Below are positions 19,001-30,489 of a stretch of DNA of 52,454 bases, in pieces. This DNA is from Betaproteobacteria bacterium. Lineage in GTDB: Bacteria; Pseudomonadota; Gammaproteobacteria; Burkholderiales; SHXO01. Every line of letters starts with the position of its first letter. Within the stretch, counting starts at the first letter, position 1. The position numbers and the translations under genes are program-made. Where the stretch lies: contig JANNFC010000121.1 in NCBI GenBank assembly GCA_031379405.1, positions 1-52,454 on the forward strand. Reading direction: 5' to 3'. Below the pieces are notes generated by a model. It worked only from the letters and a program-made list of their open reading frames with translations. It had not been told where the DNA came from and searched no databases.

Positions 19001-20574
<1,574 letters not shown>

Positions 20575-20616
20575 CTACACAAGGTGGCCACCCACTTACA
20601 TGATGTGTCGGGACAA

Positions 20617-20645
20617 CAAAAAAGGCGGCCGAAGCCGCCTTTTTA
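20617..20645 (-). terminator. Rho-independent terminator downstream of the hsp20 gene (symmetrical, could act bidirectionally)
   Basis: AAAAAAA-GGCGGC-CGAA-GCCGCC-TTTTT: a GC stem with a tetraloop, flanked by an A-run and a T-run. Confidence 0.8.
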
Positions 20646-20674
20646 TGGGTTTGATGCCGACTACTTGGTTTCTA

Positions 20675-21097
20675 TTACTGAACGCTCACCTGACGCGTCG
20701 CCGCCGCCGCCTTTTTCGGCAGAACCAACTCCAGTACGCCATTTTCATATTTGGCGTGAGCCGACTCCTGGTCGACATCCTGAGCTAAGGCAAACGCTCT
20801 GTATACCCTGCCACTGTAGCGCTCGGAGCGCAGGACGCGCTCGTCACTGTTTTGTTCCGACTCGCGCTTAACCTCCGCCGAAATGGCAATTTGATTGCCC
20901 TCGACGGTTACTTGGATCTCTTCCTTCTTCACACCCGGAATTTCCGCGTGCACGGTGTAGGCCTTGGCGTCTTCCGTCACATCGACTTTCAGGCGCGGTG
21001 CCCCAGGGTCGTCGCGTGTCATCGGTCGTAACAAGAACCCTCTCATCAAATCGTCGAAGGCGTCTTCAAACGGATACCAACGTGCAACATTTGCCAT
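20675..21097 (-). CDS. Hsp20/alpha-crystallin family small heat shock protein
   Basis: Alpha-crystallin domain (VDV.ED...Y.V.AE.PGVKKEEI.V...GN...I..E...R.F.L.....E...A.Y.NGVLEL.LPK); 140 aa. Confidence 0.9.
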   Translation of the reverse strand: MANVARWYPFEDAFDDLMRGFLLRPMTRDDPGAPRLKVDVTEDAKAYTVHAEIPGVKKEEIQVTVEGNQIAISAEVKRESEQNSDERVLRSERYSGRVYRAFALAQDVDQESAHAKYENGVLELVLPKKAAAATRQVSVQ

Positions 21098-21140
21098 GAT
21101 TTGTTCCCTTTTAACTCAGCTGGCGCGGCGCGCCCATGCT

Positions 21141-21172
21141 TGCTAAATGCGCTCAAGTCGCGAAATTTCAAG
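21141..21172 (-). promoter_or_regulatory. putative sigma-32 (heat shock) promoter for the hsp20 gene
   Basis: The minus strand reads CTTGAA-N14-GCGCATTT, versus the consensus CTTGAA-N13-15-CCCCATNT. It lies about 45 nt upstream of the hsp20 ATG. Confidence 0.45.
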
Positions 21173-21233
21173 TGTTGTCGCTTGCAATAAGCGGAACAAC
21201 GTCCTAGATTCCCGCCTTGACTCCATCGACTCT

Positions 21234-21507
21234 GTGAGGGTGGCTGCGCCCGATTCCGGTCACTCGGATCCAAAAGGTGTTGAGCGGTACCGAGACTATT
21301 TGTATCGCTACGCTTTACTTCGCCTACGCGACGAAGCGCGCGCGGAAGACGTCGTGCAGGAAACTCTGCTCGACGCTATTCAGAGCGACGCTCTTCGCTG
21401 GCAAGTCGTCCCTGAAGACCTGGCTCACCGGAATTCTCAAGCACAAGATCATCGACACCTATCGCCGCCATCCCGCCAGAAAGGATGAAGACGAGGATCG
21501 GTTGTAA
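21234..21507 (+). pseudogene. ECF-type sigma-70 family sigma factor remnant (frameshifted, lacks region 4)
   Basis: One frame gives ERYRDYLYRYALLRLRDEARAEDVVQETLLDAIQS (region 2.1/2.2). The continuation, TLFAGKSSLKTWLTGILKHKIIDTYRR (region 2.3/2.4), is in the +1 frame from about 21388. A stop at 21505-21507 follows an acidic linker. No region 4 and no anti-sigma gene follow. Confidence 0.7.
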
Positions 21508-21585
21508 AGCGGCCAGGCCACACGTTCTTCGCCCAAGGGATACAAAACACACGTTACACACCCAAACTTAGCCCGCTCGACTCAC

Positions 21586-21610
21586 ATCCAGCATAATAGC
21601 TCCGCCGTAT
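21586..21610 (+). promoter_or_regulatory. ATCCAGC-N13-CGTAT motif upstream of precursor gene 1 (candidate ECF-type promoter)
   Basis: Identical 7-mer and 5-mer, at identical spacing, to the motif at 23892-23916 upstream of precursor gene 2. xxATCC-N16-CGTAT has the geometry of ECF -35/-10 elements with a CGT -10 core. Confidence 0.5.
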
Positions 21611-21691
21611 AAGCCATACGGTGCGTGCACCGTGTGCCCTCGCACGCGAGTGGCAACGCCAACCAAACTAACCTAAATTGGAGATCAGACC

Positions 21692-22021
21692 ATGACTCGG
21701 AACAAAGCATTGACTCTCGCACTTGGCACCGCCTTCGCCGCGACCCTTGTTGCCTCCCCCGTATTGCGCGCTGCGGATAACCCCTTCGAGATGGAGTCCA
21801 TCAAGAGCGGCTTCCAGGTAGCGGACAACAAGGGTAAGGAAGGCGCCTGTGGCGGCGACAAGAAGAAAGAGGGCGCTTGCGGCGGTGATAAGGCCAAGGA
21901 CGGCGCTTGCGGCGGCGACAAGAAAAAAGAGGGCGCCTGCGGCGGTGATAAGAAGAAAGAGGGCGCCTGTGGCGGTGATAAGAAGAAAGAGGGTGCCTGT
22001 GGTGGAGACAAGGGCAAGTAA
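21692..22021 (+). CDS. secreted repeat-type RiPP precursor: signal peptide plus six KEGACGGDKK repeats (EGxCG, HvfA-like metallophore precursor)
   Basis: GGAGA Shine-Dalgarno sequence upstream. Sec signal peptide MTRNKALTLALGTAFAATLVASPVLRA/AD. Six in-frame 10-aa repeats, each with a single Cys. Lies immediately upstream of the DUF692 and DUF2063 genes. Confidence 0.8.
   Translation: MTRNKALTLALGTAFAATLVASPVLRAADNPFEMESIKSGFQVADNKGKEGACGGDKKKEGACGGDKAKDGACGGDKKKEGACGGDKKKEGACGGDKKKEGACGGDKGK
21836..22015 (+). repeat. 6 x 30-bp in-frame tandem repeat encoding K(E/D)GACGGDK(K/A/G)
   Basis: Read directly. The copies differ mainly at synonymous third positions (TGT/TGC, GGC/GGT, GAC/GAT, AAG/AAA). 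Confidence 0.95.
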
Positions 22022-22225
22022 CAACGCTTTAGGCGCTTAGGGGCCAAGGGTTGACAGAACTGGCGAAGACAATGATGCGACGATACTTTCCCCCGGGGGT
22101 CTACAAGGGGGCCACCCTCTGTTCATTCCTGGGGGATAAACAAGGGGGTGCTCCTCCTGTTCGTAGCAAGCATTTTGGCCGCACAGTCTCGACTGTCTTG
22201 GCTCCGGCGAGGCCAGCTTAAGTTT

Positions 22226-23092
22226 ATGGCCGGACCCCGGAACAACCCCGCGGGCGTGCAAGGCGCGGGGTTGGGTCTGCGGCGGGAATTGATTCCGTCG
22301 CTCAAAACCGCAGTCCCCAACGCCATCCAGTTTTTCGAGCTTGCCCCGGAAAACTGGATGGAGATGGGTGGGTCGAGCGCAAAGAACTTGCGCTTTTTCA
22401 GTGAGCGCTACCGCTTGACTTGCCACGGACTGTCGCTTTCCCTTGGCGGTCCTCAACCTCTCAATGAAGTGTTTCTCACGCGCGTGAAGCGCTTCCTGCG
22501 CGAGCACGATGTGGCGTTATATTCCGAGCACCTCGCCTACACCACGGACGAAGGTTATCTTTACGACCTGTTGCCGATCCCGTTCACGTCTGAAGCGGTG
22601 CGCTATGTCGCCGAGCGCATCAAGCGCACGCAAGACATTCTCGAACGCCGCATCGCCGTGGAGAACGCTTCCTACTACGTTGAAGCGCCGATTAGCGAAA
22701 TGAGCGAACTGGAGTTCGTGAACGCGGTATTAAGCGAAGCGGACTGTTGGCTGCATCTGGACGTGAATAACGTGTACGTGAATAGCGTAAATCACGCGTT
22801 CGATCCGCTCACATTCCTGCGTGGGTTGCCCGCGGAAAGAGTGGTCTACCTGCACATGGCCGGTCATTACAAAGAGGCGGACGATCTCCTGGTGGACACC
22901 CACGGCGCCGATGTGATCGATCAGGTTTGGTCACTGCTAGGGGTCACTTACGCCTTGTTCGGTGCCAAGCCTACGCTGTTGGAACGGGACTACAACATCC
23001 CGCCGCTCAAGGATCTTGCCCTGGAAGTGGAGCGCATCGCCCAAATGCAACGTCCGTACGCGCAGCAACAGCATGTCCGCAGCGCGTCCTGA
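22226..23092 (+). CDS. DUF692 family multinuclear non-heme iron oxidase (MNIO; MbnB/HvfB/BufB-like RiPP maturase), cassette 1
   Basis: GLGLRRE N-terminus, HGLSLSLGG, SEHLAY, VENASYY, LDVNNVYVNS, HMAGH, DTHGADV and TLLERD are the DUF692 TIM-barrel metal-ligand pattern. 288 aa from ATG 22226; the ORF track opens at GTG 22148. Confidence 0.85.
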   Translation: MAGPRNNPAGVQGAGLGLRRELIPSLKTAVPNAIQFFELAPENWMEMGGSSAKNLRFFSERYRLTCHGLSLSLGGPQPLNEVFLTRVKRFLREHDVALYSEHLAYTTDEGYLYDLLPIPFTSEAVRYVAERIKRTQDILERRIAVENASYYVEAPISEMSELEFVNAVLSEADCWLHLDVNNVYVNSVNHAFDPLTFLRGLPAERVVYLHMAGHYKEADDLLVDTHGADVIDQVWSLLGVTYALFGAKPTLLERDYNIPPLKDLALEVERIAQMQRPYAQQQHVRSAS

Positions 23093-23846
23093 ACGGCCGT
23101 CTTTCCAGCGCTATCAAGCAAGCTTTACGGCGCATATTCGTGACCCGAAGGCCAATCCCCGGCCGGCAGGCGTCAGCGCGCGGCGCATGCGTGTGTACAA
23201 CGAGTTACTGTTCAACAACGTGGAAAGCTTCCTTCTGGCGTGCTTTCCCATCACCCGAGAAATTCTGGGCGTTAGACGCTGGTCCAAGCTGGCGCGTGAG
23301 TTCTTCGCCCGTCACAAGTGCCAGTCACCGTTGTTTCGCCAGATACCGGAGGAGTTCGTCCGTTTTCTTCAATCCCGGCGCACGCTACCCATGGAACCGG
23401 TCTTCCTCGCCCACTTCGCCCACTACGAGTGGGTCGAGTTGGAGGTGGATATCTCCTCGGCAGAGCCGGACTGGGATCGCATCGATCGGGAAGGCGACCT
23501 TATACAGGGCTGTCCCGTGCTCAATGGCGCGCTTCGGGTGCTGGAGTATCCCTTCCAGGTCCATCGCATCGGGCCAAAGTTTCAACCCAAGGTGCTCGAC
23601 CCGGAGCCCACGCGCATCGTCGTATTCCGCAATCAGGACGACATGGTTCGGTTCGTCGTCATCAATGCTGTCACTGGGCGCTTGCTGGCGCTTATTTTGG
23701 AGAGGGAAGTCACCGGGGAGCAAGCCTGCCTGCAAATTGCGCAAGAGCTTGGTCATCCCAATCCACCGGCTGTTGTTGCGGGTGGCCGCGACATTTTGCA
23801 GGGACTCCGAGAGCAGGGCGCGATCCTGGGTGCTAGGCGTAAATGA
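23073..23846 (+). CDS. DUF2063 domain protein (HvfC/BufC-like MNIO partner), cassette 1
   Basis: FQ..F...IRDP, VYNELLFNNVESFL...FP and F..F....P pattern typical of the DUF2063 N-terminal domain. ATG 23073 overlaps the end of the MNIO gene by 20 nt. Confidence 0.75.
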   Translation: MSAARPERPSFQRYQASFTAHIRDPKANPRPAGVSARRMRVYNELLFNNVESFLLACFPITREILGVRRWSKLAREFFARHKCQSPLFRQIPEEFVRFLQSRRTLPMEPVFLAHFAHYEWVELEVDISSAEPDWDRIDREGDLIQGCPVLNGALRVLEYPFQVHRIGPKFQPKVLDPEPTRIVVFRNQDDMVRFVVINAVTGRLLALILEREVTGEQACLQIAQELGHPNPPAVVAGGRDILQGLREQGAILGARRK

Positions 23847-23891
23847 GCATGCACGCCGGTTTCGAAAGGTTTAATCTCCTGGGGCGAGTGA

Positions 23892-23916
23892 ATCCAGCCA
23901 GCCTCCGAAATCGTAT
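23892..23916 (+). promoter_or_regulatory. ATCCAGC-N13-CGTAT motif upstream of precursor gene 2 (candidate ECF-type promoter)
   Basis: Same motif and spacing as 21586-21610. It lies about 112 nt upstream of ATG 24029. Confidence 0.5.
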
Positions 23917-24028
23917 GTCCAGCAGGCGGCCTAGAGAGTCAAGCCCGACGATCTCTTGCGCCGTCCTGGTTAGTGTAGTGAGTACATCAGGCCTCGTCGG
24001 GCGTGATTTCCCCATTCGGAGAGAGCCA

Positions 24029-24286
24029 ATGACTACCAATACGAAACGAACCGGTGTCGCCCTCGCGGCCGCCGCCGCCGCCCTGTTTATGTCCGGTTGC
24101 GCCAGTACCGGCGGCGGCGAGAGCGCAACTGCCGCCAAAGTAATGTGCGGCGGTGTGAATGCCTGTAAGGCCCAAGGCGATTGCAAGACAGCCAGTAACG
24201 GATGCAAGGGCCAGAATGCCTGCAAGGGCCAAGGCGTCGTACAGTTGTCCAAGGATGCTTGCGTTCAGCAAGGCGGAAGGGTCTAA
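24029..24286 (+). CDS. bufferin-like Cys-rich RiPP precursor (6 Cys in the mature part) with a probable lipoprotein signal peptide
   Basis: GGAGAG Shine-Dalgarno sequence 5 nt upstream. MTTNTKRTGVALAAAAAALFMSG/C lipobox-like signal. The mature region has duplicated G-x-N-A-C-K-x-Q-G modules (CGGVNACKAQGDC...CKGQNACKGQG) and a C-terminal C..QGG. Lies directly upstream of the second DUF692/DUF2063 pair. 85 aa. Confidence 0.8.
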   Translation: MTTNTKRTGVALAAAAAALFMSGCASTGGGESATAAKVMCGGVNACKAQGDCKTASNGCKGQNACKGQGVVQLSKDACVQQGGRV

Positions 24287-24292
24287 GTCCCT

Positions 24293-24331
24293 AAAGAACG
24301 GGCTCTGCACAGGAACAGAGCCTGTTCTTTT
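24293..24331 (+). terminator. stem-loop with T-rich 3' side between precursor 2 and its MNIO gene (candidate attenuator or partial terminator)
   Basis: AAAGAACGGGCTCTG-CACAGGAA-CAGAGCCTGTTCTTT(T): a 15-bp stem with one G-U pair. The GC core is followed by TTCTTTT. It starts 7 nt after the precursor stop codon. Confidence 0.5.
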
Positions 24332-24338
24332 CCACGTT

Positions 24339-25205
24339 ATGAATCCGCCTTCCCAGTCTTTGACGCGGCCGAGCCTTGGCTTCGGGCTGGGTCTGCGCAC
24401 GGACCACTACGAGGACATCCTCAATAGCCATCCGCAGGTGGATTGGCTGGAGGTGATCTCCGAAAACTATCTTATCCCAGGCGGAAAACCGCTCTATTTC
24501 CTGGACCGAATCCGCGCCGAATATCCCTGCGTGATGCACGGGGTGTCGCTGTCCATTGGCAGTGTCGATCCTCTGGATCGAGAATACCTGATGCAGCTCA
24601 AGGCGCTCGCACAGCGCATCGAACCCGCGTGGATCTCTGATCACTTGTGCTGGACGGGGATGGCTGGAAAGAATTCGCACGACCTACTCCCGCTGCCGTA
24701 CACCGAAGAAGCTCTCAAGCATATCGCCCAGAAAGTGCGGCAACTACAAGATTTTCTTGGGCGGCGCATTCTGCTGGAAAACGTGTCGAGTTACGTGAGC
24801 TACAAGGAATCGACCCTTACGGAGTGGGAATTCCTGAGCGCTTTGACGCGGGAAGCCGATTGCCTACTGCTGCTCGACGTCAACAACATCTACGTTTCTG
24901 CCTTCAACCATCAGTTCGACGCGGAAGAGTTTCTGCGTGGCGTGCCTGCTGAGCGGGTGCAACAGATCCATCTAGCAGGTCACAGCGACTGCGGCGACCA
25001 CCTCATCGACACTCACGACGCCGATATCATCGATCCGGTGTGGGCGCTTTACGGCAAGGCCATCGAACTGCTGGGCCCCGTTTCCACCATGATCGAGCGT
25101 GACGACCACATTCCGCCGCTGGCCGATCTGGTGGCCGAATTGAGCATCGCGCGCGGCATGTTGGATAAGTCGTTACACAAGGCGCCGCAACAGGTGGCGG
25201 CATGA
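24339..25205 (+). CDS. DUF692 family multinuclear non-heme iron oxidase (MNIO; BufB-like RiPP maturase), cassette 2
   Basis: GFGLGLRTDH, HGVSLSIGS, SDHLCW, LENVSSY, LDVNNIYVSA, HLAGH, DTHDADI and MIERDD. 288 aa from ATG 24339, the same length as the cassette 1 paralog. Confidence 0.88.
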   Translation: MNPPSQSLTRPSLGFGLGLRTDHYEDILNSHPQVDWLEVISENYLIPGGKPLYFLDRIRAEYPCVMHGVSLSIGSVDPLDREYLMQLKALAQRIEPAWISDHLCWTGMAGKNSHDLLPLPYTEEALKHIAQKVRQLQDFLGRRILLENVSSYVSYKESTLTEWEFLSALTREADCLLLLDVNNIYVSAFNHQFDAEEFLRGVPAERVQQIHLAGHSDCGDHLIDTHDADIIDPVWALYGKAIELLGPVSTMIERDDHIPPLADLVAELSIARGMLDKSLHKAPQQVAA

Positions 25206-26053
25206 GCGCACTACAGACACTGCAACGCGAATTTCAGGACTTCGTCCTGGATGGCCGAGCTGAGATCGTGCAAAGAGTCGTCGGAACCTCGAGCGTCGAC
25301 CCCGCGCGCCGCTTGGGCGTTTACTACGATGCCTATCGTTTGCGGCTGATAGAAGCGCTGCAAACCGACTACACCTCCCTGAAAATCGTAATGGGCGAGG
25401 ATGACTTCGCCCAATCCATGGGCGCCTTTGTGGAGGCGACGCCATCGGTGCATCGTAATCTGCGTTGGTACGGCCAGTCTTTGCCAGAGTTCTTGCGCAC
25501 GCGCGCGCCCTCTGCGGAGCAGCCATGGTTGTGGGAGCTTGCGCTGTTCGAGTGGACCATCGCGCTCGCTTTCGATGCCGCCGATGAGCCTGTCCTGACC
25601 TTCGACGATCTGGCCGCCATGGACTCAGGAATTTGGCCATACCTGACCTTTAAATTTCATCCTTCGCGGCAACGCTTGTCACTGCGCACCAACGCCGCGA
25701 GTTTGCGCAAGGCGGTGGATGAGGAGGCGCCGATTCCCCCACCGGAACGCCTCGCGCAACCCATTCAGTGGTTGCTCTGGCGTAAGGACCTCACGGTCAT
25801 GTTTCGCTCGCTACTGCCGGAAGAGGCGTGGGCGCTGGACACTGCCCATGCCGGTGGTAACTTTACCGAGTTGTGCGAAGGTCTTTGTCAGTGGGTCGCT
25901 CCGGCGGCGGCGGCGGGCCGCCTTGCCGGGATGTTGCGCACTTGGGTGGATGATCAACTCATTGCGGCGGTGGGGTCTCCCGCGTCCGTAGGGTGCGTTT
26001 TAGGCACCGTGGCCGTGCATGCACACCTTATTGCGTCAGGGCGCGGACCGTAA
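25202..26053 (+). CDS. DUF2063 domain protein (BufC-like MNIO partner), cassette 2
   Basis: LQ.EF..FVL...., YYDAYRLRLIEALQTDY, F..FV...PS..RNLRWYG..LPEFL. ATGA start/stop overlap with the MNIO gene. The last ~25 codons read through a REP-like element and into the 3' end of the convergent gene. Confidence 0.78.
   Translation: MSALQTLQREFQDFVLDGRAEIVQRVVGTSSVDPARRLGVYYDAYRLRLIEALQTDYTSLKIVMGEDDFAQSMGAFVEATPSVHRNLRWYGQSLPEFLRTRAPSAEQPWLWELALFEWTIALAFDAADEPVLTFDDLAAMDSGIWPYLTFKFHPSRQRLSLRTNAASLRKAVDEEAPIPPPERLAQPIQWLLWRKDLTVMFRSLLPEEAWALDTAHAGGNFTELCEGLCQWVAPAAAAGRLAGMLRTWVDDQLIAAVGSPASVGCVLGTVAVHAHLIASGRGP
25988..26012. repeat. degenerate REP-like element copy
   Basis: GTAGGGTGCGTTTTAGGCACCGTGG matches the family seen at 8178-8221 (reverse complement GTAGGGTGCGTTCCACGCACCACGG) and at 11166-11189. 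Confidence 0.45.
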
Positions 26054-26483
26054 TCGCCGTCTTGAACGTCTTTTTCTTCTTGTTCTCCGAGACGATCAGT
26101 TCCAGCGCTATCTCGTCCCCTTCCTTGAGCGGTCCCTTCAACCCCAGCAACATCAAATGGATGCCCATGGGCGCCAGCGTGACCGTCTCGCTGGCCGGTA
26201 GCTCCAGCAACTTAAGCTGGCGCATGCGCATGATGCCCTCCTGCATGCTGGTGCTATGTATTTCGACTGTTTTCGCCACGCTGGTTTTCACCGCCAACAA
26301 CTGCGCTCGTTTAGGACTGGTGATCGTGAGATAGGCCGCGCCCACCGTTTGCCCCGGAACGGTGGCTCGCGCCCATCCGTCCGATATCTCCAAGGCTGCC
26401 GCGTTGGTGGCGCACAACCACAGTCCAAGTATGTAGCCCGACACCTGCGACTTCCCGATCCATCTACTTGTTCTACTTGTCAT
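26028..26483 (-). CDS. copper chaperone PCu(A)C (DUF461 family)
   Basis: Signal peptide, then DGWARAT.PG...GAAYLTI and the H(x)nM...M..HxM copper motif region (EIHSTSMQEGIMRM...APMGIHLML). The likely start is ATG 26483; the ORF track extends to 26570. Confidence 0.8.
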   Translation of the reverse strand: MTSRTSRWIGKSQVSGYILGLWLCATNAAALEISDGWARATVPGQTVGAAYLTITSPKRAQLLAVKTSVAKTVEIHSTSMQEGIMRMRQLKLLELPASETVTLAPMGIHLMLLGLKGPLKEGDEIALELIVSENKKKKTFKTAITVRALTQ

Positions 26484-26539
26484 TGCGTGTCCCGGCCATT
26501 GCGAGCATACGCTCGTATAATTCGTATTTTGCCATCGGC

Positions 26540-27691
26540 ATGCGCCCACACCTAGTTTCTCTGTCTGCATTGCTCTCTTTTGCCTTGCTCGCGCTGACTT
26601 TTTCCGCGCCGGGCTTTGCGAACCCTAATCCCACCCACCCCACCATAGCCGCCAAGGCTTACTACCTGCTCGACCTGCAAACCAATCAGGTACTCGTGGC
26701 CCATCGCGCCGACGAGCGCGTGGAGCCGGCTTCCCTCACCAAGCTCATGACGGCCTATGTGGTATTTGGCGCCCTCAAGCAGAAGCTTGTCACCACGGAG
26801 CAGCGCATCACGCCCTCGGTCAAGGCGTGGAAAACCTCCGGTTCGCGCATGTTTATCGAGCCCAATAGGCCCGTGGCTATCGACGAGCTTCTGCGCGGGA
26901 TGATCATTCAATCGGGCAACGATGCCAGTGTCGCCCTTGCCGAAGCGGTGGCGGGCGACGAGACCGCCTTCGCCGGCATGATGAATCGCGAAGCTCAGCG
27001 CCTCGGGTTGAAGAATTCGCACTTCGTCAACGCCACCGGATTACCGGACGACAAGCACTACAGCTCGGCGGCCGATCTGGTGCGCCTGGCGGCGGCGGTC
27101 ATTCGCGATTTTCCGGAGCACTATCCGCTCTACGCGATGCGCGACTACACCTATAACGACATCACTCAGCCCAATCGCAACCTGCTGCTCGGCAAGGATC
27201 CCTACGTGGATGGCGTGAAGACCGGATTCACCGAGAATGCCGGCTATTGTCTCATCGCGTCGGCGAAGCGGGAGACACGGCGTCTGGTCGCCGTCGTGTT
27301 GGGTGCCGCCTCGGAAAATTCGCGCGCCATCGAAGCGCAGAAACTGCTCAACCACGGCTTCCAATTCTTCGAGAATGTCCGCTTGTACGAGAAGGACGCG
27401 CCACTATCGAAGCTGGAAGTGTGGAAAGGCAGCGAGCGCGAAGTGCCCATCGGCTTTCACCAGGACTACATCGTCACCATACCGCGTGGACAGAAGGATC
27501 AACTCAAGGCGAAGATGGAGAGTGTCCAGCCATTGCTCGCGCCCATCAGCACGGGGCAAGTCGTGGGTACCCTGAGACTCACGTTTGCTGGTAAATCCTA
27601 TGGCGAGCGCTCCGTCGTATCGCTGGCCAACGTTGGAATCGCCAATTTCTTCGCGCGCACCTGGGACGGTATTCGTCTGCGGTTCAAGTAG
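26540..27691 (+). CDS. D-alanyl-D-alanine carboxypeptidase (serine-type, PBP5/6 family)
   Basis: Signal peptide. SxxK (ASLTKLMT), SGN (QSGNDAS) and KTG (VKTGFT) active-site motifs. PBP5 C-terminal domain. Confidence 0.9.
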   Translation: MRPHLVSLSALLSFALLALTFSAPGFANPNPTHPTIAAKAYYLLDLQTNQVLVAHRADERVEPASLTKLMTAYVVFGALKQKLVTTEQRITPSVKAWKTSGSRMFIEPNRPVAIDELLRGMIIQSGNDASVALAEAVAGDETAFAGMMNREAQRLGLKNSHFVNATGLPDDKHYSSAADLVRLAAAVIRDFPEHYPLYAMRDYTYNDITQPNRNLLLGKDPYVDGVKTGFTENAGYCLIASAKRETRRLVAVVLGAASENSRAIEAQKLLNHGFQFFENVRLYEKDAPLSKLEVWKGSEREVPIGFHQDYIVTIPRGQKDQLKAKMESVQPLLAPISTGQVVGTLRLTFAGKSYGERSVVSLANVGIANFFARTWDGIRLRFK

Positions 27692-27730
27692 CCTTGAGCC
27701 TTTCCGATAAGCCAAGCAACCGAGCCATTT

Positions 27731-28612
27731 ATGCTTCCAGTTAGCATTGCCCCCCCCGAGGCCATCGCCTACCTCAATGGCGAATTCATCGCACTCAAAC
27801 ACGCGAGGGTGAGCGTTCTCGACCGAGGTTTCATCTTCGGCGACGGCATCTACGAAGTCATCCCGGTCTACGATGGCGAACCATTTCGTCTGGCTGCTCA
27901 CCTGCAACGATTGCAAGCATGTCTGGATAGCGTGCGCATGACCAACCCGCACACTGATGCCCAGTGGGAAGAGTTAATTCGTCAAGTGGTCGCACGCAAC
28001 CCGCACGTCGATCAAGCGCTTTATCTGCAAGTGACGCGTGGACTCGCGCCGCGCGATCACGCTTTCCCCGCGGGCGTCGCGCCCACGGTATTCCTGATGA
28101 GCAACAAACTGAGTTCGCCTACGGCGGAAGCCATCTCCAACGGCGTGAGCGCCATGACCTTCCCGGACAATCGCTGGTTGCGATGCGATATCAAGTCCAC
28201 CTCCTTGTTACCTAATATCTTGCTACGGCAGGCTGCCGTGGACGCGGGCTGCGCGGAAGCGGTAATGGTGCGCGACGGATTTTTGACCGAAGGCGCGGCG
28301 AGCAATATCTTTGTCGTCAAGAACGGCGTGTTGCTGGCGCCGCCGAAAAGCCACCTGATACTTCCGGGCATTACCTACGACGTCGTGTTAGATCTCGCGC
28401 ACAAAGGGCGCATTCCGGTGGACGTGCGCCCCATATCCGAAGCCGAGTTAAAAAGCGCCGACGAAGTATGGCTAACTTCGTCCACGCGCGAAGCGCTGGC
28501 CATCACCACCTTGGATGGGAAACCCGTCGGCAGCGGCAAACCCGGCGAGCGCTTCAGACAGTTGCATACCCTGTTTCAGGAGAGCAAGCGAGCCCCGCGA
28601 GCGCATCGCTGA
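27731..28612 (+). CDS. D-amino acid aminotransferase (fold-type IV PLP enzyme)
   Basis: RGFIFGDGIYEV, CDIKSTSLLPN, EG.ASN.F.VK.G.L.AP....LPGITY. Conserved position between the dac gene and ybeD-lipB-lipA. Confidence 0.8.
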   Translation: MLPVSIAPPEAIAYLNGEFIALKHARVSVLDRGFIFGDGIYEVIPVYDGEPFRLAAHLQRLQACLDSVRMTNPHTDAQWEELIRQVVARNPHVDQALYLQVTRGLAPRDHAFPAGVAPTVFLMSNKLSSPTAEAISNGVSAMTFPDNRWLRCDIKSTSLLPNILLRQAAVDAGCAEAVMVRDGFLTEGAASNIFVVKNGVLLAPPKSHLILPGITYDVVLDLAHKGRIPVDVRPISEAELKSADEVWLTSSTREALAITTLDGKPVGSGKPGERFRQLHTLFQESKRAPRAHR

Positions 28613-28622
28613 TCGCTCACCC

Positions 28623-28886
28623 ATGGCGGACGAAACCCTCCTCGACTTTCCCTGCGATTTCCCCATCAAAGTGATGGGGCGCATGGAGCCCGGCTTCGCG
28701 CAGGATGTGGTCACCATCGTGAAGAGATTCGCACCCGATTTCGATGAATCAACCATTGCCATGCGTCCCAGCCGCAAGAAAAGCTACATCAGCCTGACCT
28801 GTATTATCAAAGCCACGTCGCGCACGCAACTTGACGATCTCTATCGCGAGCTTTGCGATCATCCGCAAGTGGTGATGGTGCTGTGA
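28623..28886 (+). CDS. ybeD: YbeD family protein (DUF493)
   Basis: FPCDFPIKVMG...S.KG.Y.S....I.A.S..QLD..Y.EL pattern; 87 aa. Lies directly upstream of lipB. Confidence 0.85.
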   Translation: MADETLLDFPCDFPIKVMGRMEPGFAQDVVTIVKRFAPDFDESTIAMRPSRKKSYISLTCIIKATSRTQLDDLYRELCDHPQVVMVL

Positions 28887-29551
28887 TGATGCGTAGCGGA
28901 GCGCGGGTGGCACCACGGCGAGCGCCGCCAGCGGCGCAAGCGGTGATTCGAGATCTTGGCTTGGCTGAGTACGAACCGACATGGCGCGCGATGCAGGCGT
29001 TTACCGCAAACCGCGACGAGTACACCGCCAACGAGTTGTGGCTGCTTGAACACTTGCCCATCTATACCTATGGCGTGGCGGGACGCGAAGCGCACTTGCC
29101 GAGAATCGCCAGCGATATTCCCGTACTGAAAGTGGATCGGGGCGGGCAGGTGACCTATCATGGACCCGGGCAGTTGGTGGTGTATGTACTGTGGAATCTT
29201 GCTCGCGACGGATTGTCGGTGCGGCAAACGGTGCGAAAATTGGAGAACTCGGTGATCGGATTGTTGCGCGACTACGGCGTGCTCGCCAGTGGCCGCGAAG
29301 ATGCACCGGGTGTTTACGTGAAGGCTGCGAAAGTGGCTTCGCTGGCCCTCAGGATACGCAAAGGCTGTAGCTATCATGGGCTGGCCCTCAACGTGGATAT
29401 GGACCTTACGCCGTTCGCTCACATCGATCCGTGTGGGTATCCCTCGCTGCCTGTCACGCAACTGCGCGATCTTGGCATCGCAGATAGCAAAACGGACATT
29501 GGCGAACAACTGCTGCACCACGTGCAAGTTCAACTTGGAGTGGCTTCATGA
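28886..29551 (+). CDS. lipB: lipoyl(octanoyl) transferase
   Basis: LGL.EY...[29 protein letters not shown] and KV.S.G.R...G.S.HGLALNV. The start overlaps the ybeD stop (TGATG). Confidence 0.9.
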
Positions 29552-30489
29552 GTCAATCAGATCACGCACGGCAAACCGGCAGCGACAAGACCGCTCGCAA
29601 CCCAATCAAGATCATTCCCATCGCAGCGCTCAAGAAACCGGACTGGATTCGAGTCAGGCTGGGCAACAGCGAAAATTTTCACGCCGTCAAGAAAGCGCTG
29701 CGCGAGAACAAGCTTCACACCGTATGCGAAGAAGCATCATGCCCCAACATCGGCGAATGCTTCGGCAAGGGCACTGCCACTTTCATGATTCTGGGTGACC
29801 TTTGCACCCGTCGCTGCCCGTTCTGCGATGTGGCCCACGGCCGTCCGAAACCGCCGGATGTCGACGAGCCCAACAACCTCGCTCGTACCATCGCCGCCAT
29901 GAAATTGAAGTATGTGGTCATCACCAGCGTGGATCGCGATGACTTGCGCGATGGTGGCGCGCAGCATTTCGTGGATTGCATCCGTGCCGTGCGCGAGCGA
30001 TCGCCCAATACCCGCATCGAAATTCTCACTCCGGATTTCCGCGGGCGTTTGGACAAGGCCCTCGACCTACTCGGACAAGGGCTGCCCGATGTCATGAATC
30101 ACAATCTGGAAACCGTTCCGCGCCTCTACAAACAAGCGCGTCCGGGGGCGGACTACACACACTCCTTGAAGTTGCTGCACGAGGTCAAAGCGCGTCATCC
30201 GGATGTGACCACCAAATCCGGCCTCATGGTGGGATTGGGCGAGACCGACGAAGAGATCCTGCAAGTCATGCGCGATTTGCGCGCACACCAAGTAGACATG
30301 CTGACAGTTGGTCAATACTTGCAACCCACAGGTGGCCACCTGCCAGTGTTGCGTTACGTCGAACCCGCGATGTTCAAGCAGTACGAGCGCGAAGCCAATG
30401 CGATGGGATTTGTACACGCCGCCTGCGGGCCGTTGGTACGCTCCAGCTATCACGCTGATGCACAGGCCCATGCTGCGGGCGTGAATTAG
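29548..30489 (+). CDS. lipA: lipoyl synthase
   Basis: [12 protein letters not shown] and the radical-SAM motif CTRRCPFC; SVDRDDL. 313 aa. Confidence 0.95.

Follow-up and report, generated by a model that had tools for sequence, protein, structure and literature searches.

We analyzed a 52,454-nucleotide (nt) stretch of DNA, contig JANNFC010000121.1 of a Betaproteobacteria bacterium (hereafter the window), in which two neighbouring biosynthetic cassettes, one oxazolin-like and one of the bufferin-2 type, are each preceded by a copy of the bipartite motif ATCCAGC-N13-CGTAT. An earlier note on this DNA had read the motif, as xxATCC-N16-CGTAT, as a promoter for a sigma factor of the extracytoplasmic function (ECF) type, and we followed up this proposal by comparison with related loci, which are given L numbers below. 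The features that matter here are as follows, with the putative promoters of the first and second cassette called P1 and P2.

21255-21507, plus strand: ECF sigma gene remnant (TIGR02943 family), of which region 2 alone is left, divided between two frames (21255-21392 and 21394-21465), immediately 5' of motif copy 1
21578-21589, plus strand: putative -35 region of P1, CGACT-CAC-ATCC (ATCC core, 21586-21589), which departs from the family consensus cgacTG(A/C)ATCC
21606-21610, plus strand: putative P1 -10 element, CGTAT, 16 nt after ATCC; CGTATAAG is common to this site and the hvfA promoter of L073
21692-22021, plus strand: precursor of cassette 1, oxazolin/HvfA-like, an open reading frame with a signal peptide and six EGACGGDKxK repeats, directly 5' of the HvfB and HvfC genes
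22226-23092, plus strand: HvfB-type MNIO maturase of cassette 1 (PF05114, 342 bits; NF003818 HvfB, 410 bits, above the cut-off)
23073-23846, plus strand: HvfC-type partner of cassette 1, DUF2063 plus NGO1945_C (PF09836, PF22106; NF050145 HvfC, 279 bits)
23885-23895, plus strand: putative -35 region of P2, CGAG-TGAATCC (ATCC core, 23892-23895), beginning 39 nt past the hvfC stop
23912-23916, plus strand: putative P2 -10 element, CGTAT, whose CGTA is invariant in alignment A1 (see below)
24029-24286, plus strand: BufA2 bufferin-type periplasmic metallophore precursor of cassette 2 (NF050166 Cu_RiPP_BufA2, 81 bits, cut-off 60)
24301-24330, plus strand: hairpin GGCTCTG...CAGAGCC with a T-rich run, just 3' of the bufA2 stop; terminator-like matches at 24301-24325 on both strands
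24339-25205, plus strand: BufB MNIO maturase of cassette 2 (NF050167 MNIO_BufB, 389 bits, cut-off 310)
25202-26053, plus strand: BufC-like DUF2063 partner of cassette 2 (PF09836, 64 bits)

Oxazolins (HvfA) and bufferin-2 are families of periplasmic copper-binding ribosomally synthesized and post-translationally modified peptides (RiPPs) (PMC11626156, PMC12452194), and the window shows the hallmarks of such clusters, namely a Cys-rich precursor with a signal peptide, an MNIO (DUF692) enzyme and a DUF2063 partner. All six cassette genes are intact, BufA2, BufB, HvfB and HvfC exceed the NCBIfam cut-offs, and DUF2063 is found in both cassettes. The precursor of cassette 1 had no match in Pfam or NCBIfam and shares 53% identity (E 1e-30) with the L073 precursor, which has EGKCG repeats; its own repeats read EGACGG and not the canonical EGKCG, the Lys before Cys being replaced by Ala. 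A gene for a PCuAC copper chaperone lies 3' of cassette 2 on the opposite strand.

Upon searching both strands of the window for ATCCAGC-N13-CGTAT, we found two matches, where 0.03 would be expected for a fixed pattern: ATCCAGCATAATAGCTCCGCCGTAT at 21586-21610 (copy 1, ATCCAGC-ataatagctccgc-CGTAT) and ATCCAGCCAGCCTCCGAAATCGTAT at 23892-23916 (copy 2, ATCCAGC-cagcctccgaaat-CGTAT), both on the plus strand. The gaps to the start codons are 81 nt (ATG 21692) and 112 nt (ATG 24029), confirming the positions and distances given in the earlier note. ATCCAGC by itself occurs 11 times versus 8.4 expected and is hence not enriched; the note had overlooked four of these occurrences, while its statement that there is no third copy with CGTAT at N13 stands. 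Its chance expectation of about 1e-3, by contrast, was overstated, because the pattern had been picked after looking: when the two intergenic regions, 184 and 182 nt long, were shuffled 2000 times, 149 of the pairs (7.5%) had some match in common that consisted of two blocks, covered at least 12 positions and had a 5-25-nt spacer. Since shuffled pairs match post hoc this often, the two copies by themselves are suggestive at most, and one has to consider that two G+C-rich intergenic regions, or at least the one with copy 1, resemble the motif by chance. As we read the sequences, the significance of the motif derives from the comparative evidence and not from the presence of two copies.

For the oxazolin-type cassette, an HvfB scan with one genome per species yielded 80 loci, none more than 70% identical, whose sources include Nitrosomonadales, Thiobacillus, Lysobacter and Cellvibrio. 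Sixteen of them carry an intact sigma gene (~190-210 residues) and a gene for a zinc-finger (ZAS) anti-sigma factor (~60-100 residues) directly 5' of hvfA-hvfB-hvfC; these sigma factors are homologous to the remnant in the window and their genes are often preceded, as there, by argB and hsp20. At least six of the 16 (L016, L020, L024, L025, L027 and L030) have the motif 5' of the sigma gene, in the form TGC[A/C]TCTAAA-N13/14-CGT[A/C][A/T], and the version upstream of Thiobacillus-type sigma genes, TGC(A/C)TCTAAA-N13-CGTAT, equals the window motif in spacing and -10 element. Where a sigma gene is lacking, hvfA can directly follow the motif, as in L073 (GTGAATCC-N16-CGTATAAG) and L021 (GTGAATCC-N17-CGTATA). 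Four Lysobacter loci have TGCATCC-N16-CGTAT 5' of hvfA, L046 (Tahibacter, N17) and L068 (Thiothrix) have TGCATCC or ACATCC followed by CGTA, and L043 (Cellvibrio) has GCATCT, a 15-nt spacer and CGTAT. A different form, the Neisseria-type TGTAAG...N12...CGTCTAA, occupies the hvfA upstream regions of L039, L054, L051 and L058, and the Nitrosospira loci show neither the ATCC-type nor the GTAAG-type form. The sigma factors that go with L039 and L058 likewise belong to TIGR02943, which suggests that this family holds subgroups, of two classes that would differ in -35 specificity. Upon testing all 50 hvfA upstream regions for enriched dyads (4-mer-N-4-mer), we obtained no dominant motif; there are at least two promoter classes among the hvf loci, and many promoters lie 5' of the sigma gene instead. 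The motif thus described marks some hvf clusters but not all.

None of the 80 hvf genome loci contained a BufA2 cassette, and a BufB scan of metagenome contigs supplied L081-L160. Here, 23 of the 25 closest bufA2 genes are preceded by ATC[CT]-N15-17-CGT[ACT], located 350-400 nt before the bufA2 stop (394 nt in the window); a more distant bufA2 group does not carry the motif. In a MAFFT alignment of 16 leader regions (A1), ATCC and CGTA are the sole invariant columns 5' of the ribosome-binding site, whereas the spacer is free. The earlier note had proposed to align homologous upstream regions, and the outcome, with the boxes but not the spacer conserved 5' of bufA2 orthologues, bears out its expectation. 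The TGAATCC of P2 recurs identically in L081/L082, L084, L085, L094, L096, L108 and others. A sigma homologue lies within 6 kb in about 5 of the buf loci L081-L160, and most motif-bearing loci are without one. Where sigma and anti-sigma genes or their remnants are present (L166-L168, L093, L151, L091 and L161), the anti-sigma gene is followed first by the motif and then by the cassette; copy 1 in the window likewise follows a probable anti-sigma remnant, as the motif does in L161, L091, L093 and L166. Furthermore, one contig, Ga0070741_10000713, carries a sigma/anti-sigma pair ~24 kb from a motif-bearing bufA2 cassette (L115, L163).

Taken together, 33 distinct instances define the consensus cgacTG(a/c)ATCC(a/g)-N15-CGTA(t/c). 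The columns outside the search pattern (TG, A/C and the base after ATCC) hold 1.0-1.5 bits each and the spacer ~0-0.4 bits. The block ATCCAGC, which the earlier note had taken as fixed, does not hold up in that form, as its GC varies among loci and the conserved part is TG(A/C)ATCC(A/G) plus CGTA(T/C). The strict pattern ATCC-N16-CGTA had 53 matches in 3.17 Mb of strand length from 160 loci, with 29 of the 53 inside the 28 kb of target windows (30-250 nt 5' of a precursor or sigma gene, on the same strand) versus 0.21 expected from the background density; the Poisson value of this excess is not a literal probability, a point that tempers our interpretation, as the loci are phylogenetically related, though their spacers nonetheless differ. 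The extended pattern TG[AC]ATC[CT]-N16-CGTA was found 30 times in the window and 168 loci taken together. Every one of these matches points the same way as the cassette, and with a single exception they lie directly 5' of a sigma, hvfA, bufA2 or bufB gene.

We scored the window with a weight matrix built from the informative columns of the 31 non-window instances. Among ~105,000 window positions, it ranked 23892 first (23.9 bits) and 21586 second (14.7 bits). A 33-column matrix that included the spacer had been dropped as too noisy, with shuffle maxima of 22 bits. The score of copy 2 lies above the maximum of 200 shuffles, and that of copy 1 is expected 0.28 times per shuffled window, which, like the 7.5% of shuffled region pairs above, leaves some room for a coincidence at copy 1. 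Against this, the probability that such a site falls by chance in the 184-nt hvfA upstream region is ~0.28 x 184 / 105,000, roughly 5e-4; the motif, with a shared CGTATA, also stands 5' of hvfA at L073 and at L021; and copy 1 directly follows the anti-sigma remnant, the position that the motif takes in L161, L091, L093 and L166. Hence, we regard chance resemblance, even if confined to copy 1, as very improbable.

Most likely, judging from these sequence comparisons, both copies are promoters for one ECF-type sigma factor, with P1 serving the oxazolin cassette and P2 the bufferin-2 cassette. We favour ECF promoters because the two blocks are asymmetric, are separated by a fixed 16-nt unconserved spacer, keep a constant orientation and a promoter-like distance to the gene, and are linked to sigma/anti-sigma genes. 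For copy 2 the support from the comparative data is strong, and for copy 1 it is moderate. The promoter assignment of the earlier note is thus sustained by orthologue conservation, by sigma linkage and by the match to published consensus sequences, and no sigma-70-like promoter was predicted 5' of either precursor.

Alternatively, the same two blocks could be an operator to which an ordinary transcription factor binds, such as a regulator that senses metals. DNA binding was once proposed for DUF2063 proteins (PMC2954202), and the -10 box of P1 lies inside a perfect 6-bp inverted repeat, CCGTAT-aagcc-ATACGG (21605-21621). This repeat is, however, missing from copy 2 and from the orthologous promoters, and it is probably incidental. 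An operator also fits poorly with blocks that are asymmetric, show no dyad across loci, are always oriented with the downstream gene at a promoter-like distance, keep a fixed 16-nt spacer of unconserved sequence, match a published ECF -35/-10 consensus and co-occur with sigma/anti-sigma genes and not with a regulator gene. We therefore give an operator very little credence and retain the interpretation as ECF promoters.

The two promoters do not seem to derive from each other. The flanks of the two motif copies are otherwise unrelated; in A1, P2 and its leader look like the leaders that precede bufA2 at other loci, and P1 has CGTATAAG in common with the promoter of hvfA in L073. As each copy resembles its own cassette type, the copies are not a recent mutual duplication, and each cassette appears to have arrived with its own promoter of one class.

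A likely former partner of these promoters has left traces immediately 5' of copy 1. Pfam Sigma70_r2 and NCBIfam TIGR02943/PRK12520 match both frames of the remnant, each partially, and in a tblastn search with the intact sigma of L001, residues 11-57 and 59-82 align in separate frames, indicating a frameshift inside region 2. Region 4 and nearly the whole anti-sigma gene are missing. The tail of the remnant, ...YRRHPARKDEDEDRL and a stop codon (...KHKIIDTYRRHPARKDEDEDRL and stop), resembles the C-termini of anti-sigma factors, for example ...LRNHPLLKDRRD and ...FRNHPVVKGDREDK, each followed by a stop, and it aligns with the 3' ends of the anti-sigma genes of L091, L093, L161 and L166. The remnant is thus a pseudogene that a deletion apparently joined to the last ~12 anti-sigma codons (tail RRHPARKDEDEDRL and stop). 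A homology search with an 85-residue reconstruction of the remnant returned short or partial proteins only, with P0002 alone informative, and an ancestral promoter 5' of the remnant (21098-21250) was not found by eye.

The same site in other samples captures the remnant's probable history. In L166-L168 we found the intact form, flanked by the genes that also flank it in the window: slmA, the gene of a HAD hydrolase, argB and hsp20 (minus strand) are followed by sigma, anti-sigma, the motif (GCGCATCC-N16-CGTAC), bufA2, bufB and bufC, and beyond bufC by PCuAC (minus strand), dacC, dat, a DUF493 gene, lipB and lipA. L161 and L162 contain a truncated 89-residue sigma and the last anti-sigma codons, then the motif and bufA2, and L081 holds bufA2-bufB-bufC at the site without any sigma. 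By these arrangements, the local regulator pair was lost more than once while the promoter was kept. As for the site at large, window positions 19648-30489 are syntenic with L081, L161 and L166-L168 from hsp20 to PCuAC/dacC/dat/lipB/lipA, and its contents vary among sigma/anti-sigma plus buf2, truncated sigma plus buf2, and buf2 alone. In Thiobacillus and L001, sigma/anti-sigma plus hvf lie downstream of argB (in many cases also of hsp20), and a tandem of hvf and buf2 at the hsp20/PCuAC site occurs in this window only, among the compared relatives.

Several observations weigh against the assignment of both copies to one working ECF sigma factor. The sigma gene next to P1 has decayed to a pseudogene, and when the 52 kb of the window were searched with a profile made from 18 intact relatives, no other sigma of the TIGR02943-type family was detected, so that a working partner is assumed and would have to be encoded elsewhere. 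Copy 1 reads CACATCC and lacks the TG of the extended -35 region, its support coming from position and core match; ACATCC variants are found also in L091, L097, L099, L113 and L068. The closest hvfB relatives (Nitrosospira loci, L001 and L031) have no motif 5' of hvfA, and with the Neisseria-like GTAAG...CGTCTAA promoter at other hvf loci, the motif is not universal for hvf.

The decay of the neighbouring sigma gene also raises the possibility that both sites are genuine ECF promoters by descent that are now orphaned, with the sigma lost and the cassettes silent or otherwise expressed. The truncation and frameshift beside P1, the deleted anti-sigma gene, the lack of a second family sigma in the window and the departure of copy 1 from the extended -35 consensus would all fit with such a loss. 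However, the invariant ATCC and CGTA at N16 are intact in both copies, and the six cassette genes are intact and at or above the family cut-offs. Moreover, most related buf loci keep the motif without an adjacent sigma, L161/L162 have likewise kept it after a similar sigma/anti-sigma deletion, one contig has the family sigma 24 kb from a motif-bearing cassette, and no alternative sigma-70 promoter was predicted. We thus consider orphaned promoters unlikely and continue with promoters that are served by a sigma factor encoded at a distance.

Comparison with known ECF systems places the putative partner close to those of Neisseria and Haemophilus. The linked sigma factors of the related loci score above the TIGR02943 cut-off, and a close solved structure for them was not found. 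The linked anti-sigma factors are soluble ZAS proteins of 62-97 residues with no hydrophobic segment visible by sequence reading, and those that we tested (L001 and L151) match NF052368 'antisigmaE' and contain Cys4, His30, Cys34 and Cys37 (His30-x3-Cys34-x2-Cys37). Neisseria sigma-E (NMB2144) with MseR recognizes GTMAGBWTT-N12-13-CGTCTAAH and drives its own operon, which includes hvf-type genes, and H. influenzae RpoE2/HrsE controls a DUF692/DUF2063/DoxX cluster in response to hypochlorous acid (HOCl). Both systems share with the related loci an ECF sigma paired with a small soluble ZAS anti-sigma, and the Cys/His positions of MseR are the same as in the L001 and L151 anti-sigma factors, whereas the window retains only a probable anti-sigma C-terminal tail. 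Their regulons are also alike in the EGKCG-repeat precursor/DUF692/DUF2063 cluster and in a -10 element with a CGT core. They differ in that here a BufA2 cassette would be served as well and the local sigma/anti-sigma pair is reduced to a pseudogene. The Neisseria -35 element differs too, as the window has CACATCC or TGAATCC with a -10 of CGTAT and not GTMAGBWTT/CGTCTAAH.

Caulobacter SigF (ECF16), with its membrane anti-sigma NrsF, drives buf1 and buf2 from GTAACC-N16-CGAA (PMC3511200, PMC11626156). This system and S. meliloti RpoE7 are alike to ours in that one ECF sigma serves two bufferin cassettes through a shared motif 5' of each precursor under copper or metal stress. The Caulobacter system differs in its GTAACC-N16-CGAA promoter, its membrane anti-sigma and its ECF16 family, which neither the window nor the linked loci match. 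By promoter sequence, the closest classes are ECF18 (GCATCC / CGTAT) and ECF11 (GTGATC / CGTATA) (PMC13492112), the latter with PSPTO_1043 sites of the form TGATCC-N16-CGTA (PMC5507510). The 31-locus consensus TGcATCC...CGTAt fits the ECF18 class, with ACATCC and GAATCC in the window, each with CGTAT, and the ATCC-N16-CGTA core is common to ECF11/PSPTO_1043. This likeness to ECF11 and ECF18 is one of promoter sequence: ECF18 sigma factors are described with RskA-like anti-sigma factors, which the linked ZAS proteins (NF052368) are not, and ECF11 has ChrR anti-sigma factors with a cupin-like domain, whereas the linked ones are short and soluble. The present case would hence combine a sigma/anti-sigma pair of the Neisseria/Haemophilus type with an ECF18/ECF11-like -35 box.

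We suggest the following scheme. RNA polymerase with one ECF sigma would read (TG[A/C])ATCC as the -35 element and, after a 16-nt spacer, CGTA(T/C) as the -10 element, and start ~5-9 nt downstream. From P1, transcription of hvfA-hvfB-hvfC is predicted to start at ~21615-21619, with a leader of ~75 nt, and from P2, that of bufA2-bufB-bufC at ~23921-23925, with a leader of ~105 nt, which would put both periplasmic metallophore cassettes into one stress regulon. The cognate sigma would be of the TIGR02943 family, whose members in related loci come with a small, soluble anti-sigma of the zinc-finger (ZAS) kind, like MseR of Neisseria. In this organism, deletion and frameshift have destroyed the local pair, and a sigma encoded elsewhere on the chromosome would serve the promoters. 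Action in trans is the most economical solution, because the pair was lost repeatedly, most motif-bearing buf loci have no sigma, and the pair on Ga0070741_10000713 lies 24 kb off. By analogy with the systems above, induction would probably come from copper or from oxidative stress (thiol or HOCl). One may go further and propose that one trans-acting sigma of the TIGR02943/MseR type coordinates several interchangeable cassettes, of the oxazolin and the bufferin-2 type, at the hsp20-PCuAC site, with local copies repeatedly lost (in the window, in L161/L162 and possibly in L091/L092), the promoter kept, and the remnant open reading frames perhaps regulating, for example as a decoy. We hold this extended version to be rather unlikely, and if true, it would also call for a change to the claim in print that sigma/anti-sigma genes are absent from Buf2 clusters.

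The earlier note had also inferred separate transcription units, and each cassette has its own promoter-like site. Between the hvfC stop (23846) and the second motif there are, however, 45 nt in which no terminator was predicted, so that read-through from P1 into cassette 2 is possible. Within cassette 2, the hairpin after bufA2 may act as a partial terminator that attenuates transcription into bufB and would thereby set the precursor-to-enzyme ratio. In the bufA2 leader (23943-24002), a long-range stem can be drawn between GCCCGACGA (23943-23951) and TCGTCGGGC (23994-24002), and orthologous bufA2 leaders have GGTCCG...CGGACC at the equivalent place. RNAalifold on alignment A3 predicted a common helix of 6 bp whose covariation is weak (term -0.23), folds of single leader sequences were no better than shuffles (z-scores of -0.05 to -1.95), and an Rfam scan of the leaders returned nothing; the stem may be a conserved leader structure.

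Some further features of the neighbourhood deserve mention. The gap between hvfA and hvfB (22022-22225) measures ~200 nt versus ~20-30 nt in most relatives and holds ACAAGGGGG twice (22103 and 22140) plus CCCCCGGGGG; candidate explanations are an attenuator, a repeat element and the scar of an insertion. Upstream of hsp20 (20675-21097, minus strand) there is a sigma-32-like heat-shock promoter, CTTGAAAT-N13-CGCATTTA, at 21165-21172 on the minus strand. L001 and many loci of the Thiobacillus type keep CTTGAAA(T) at this position 5' of hsp20, and it nearly touches the ECF-type -35 box in L073 and L021. No msrAB genes were seen in the cassette neighbourhood.

That ECF sigma factors control operons for MNIO metallophores is established knowledge from Caulobacter, Neisseria and Haemophilus, and to a specialist the finding as such is unsurprising. 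What it adds is a testable consensus, TG(A/C)ATCC-N16-CGTA(T/C), for widespread bufferin-2 and oxazolin-type copper-metallophore clusters of beta- and gamma-proteobacteria, which would thereby be linked to a TIGR02943 sigma with a small ZAS anti-sigma. A survey of MNIO clusters placed sigma/anti-sigma genes in Buf1 but not Buf2 clusters (PMC12452194); our data qualify this statement, in that a minority of Buf2 clusters have sigma/anti-sigma genes (L151, L093, L156 and L166-L168) and many more have the putative promoter. Overall, the two cassettes of the window suggest that two chemically different metallophores can share one regulon, and the consensus would enable the prediction of such regulons from genome sequence and indicate likely inducing conditions for the expression of these natural products.

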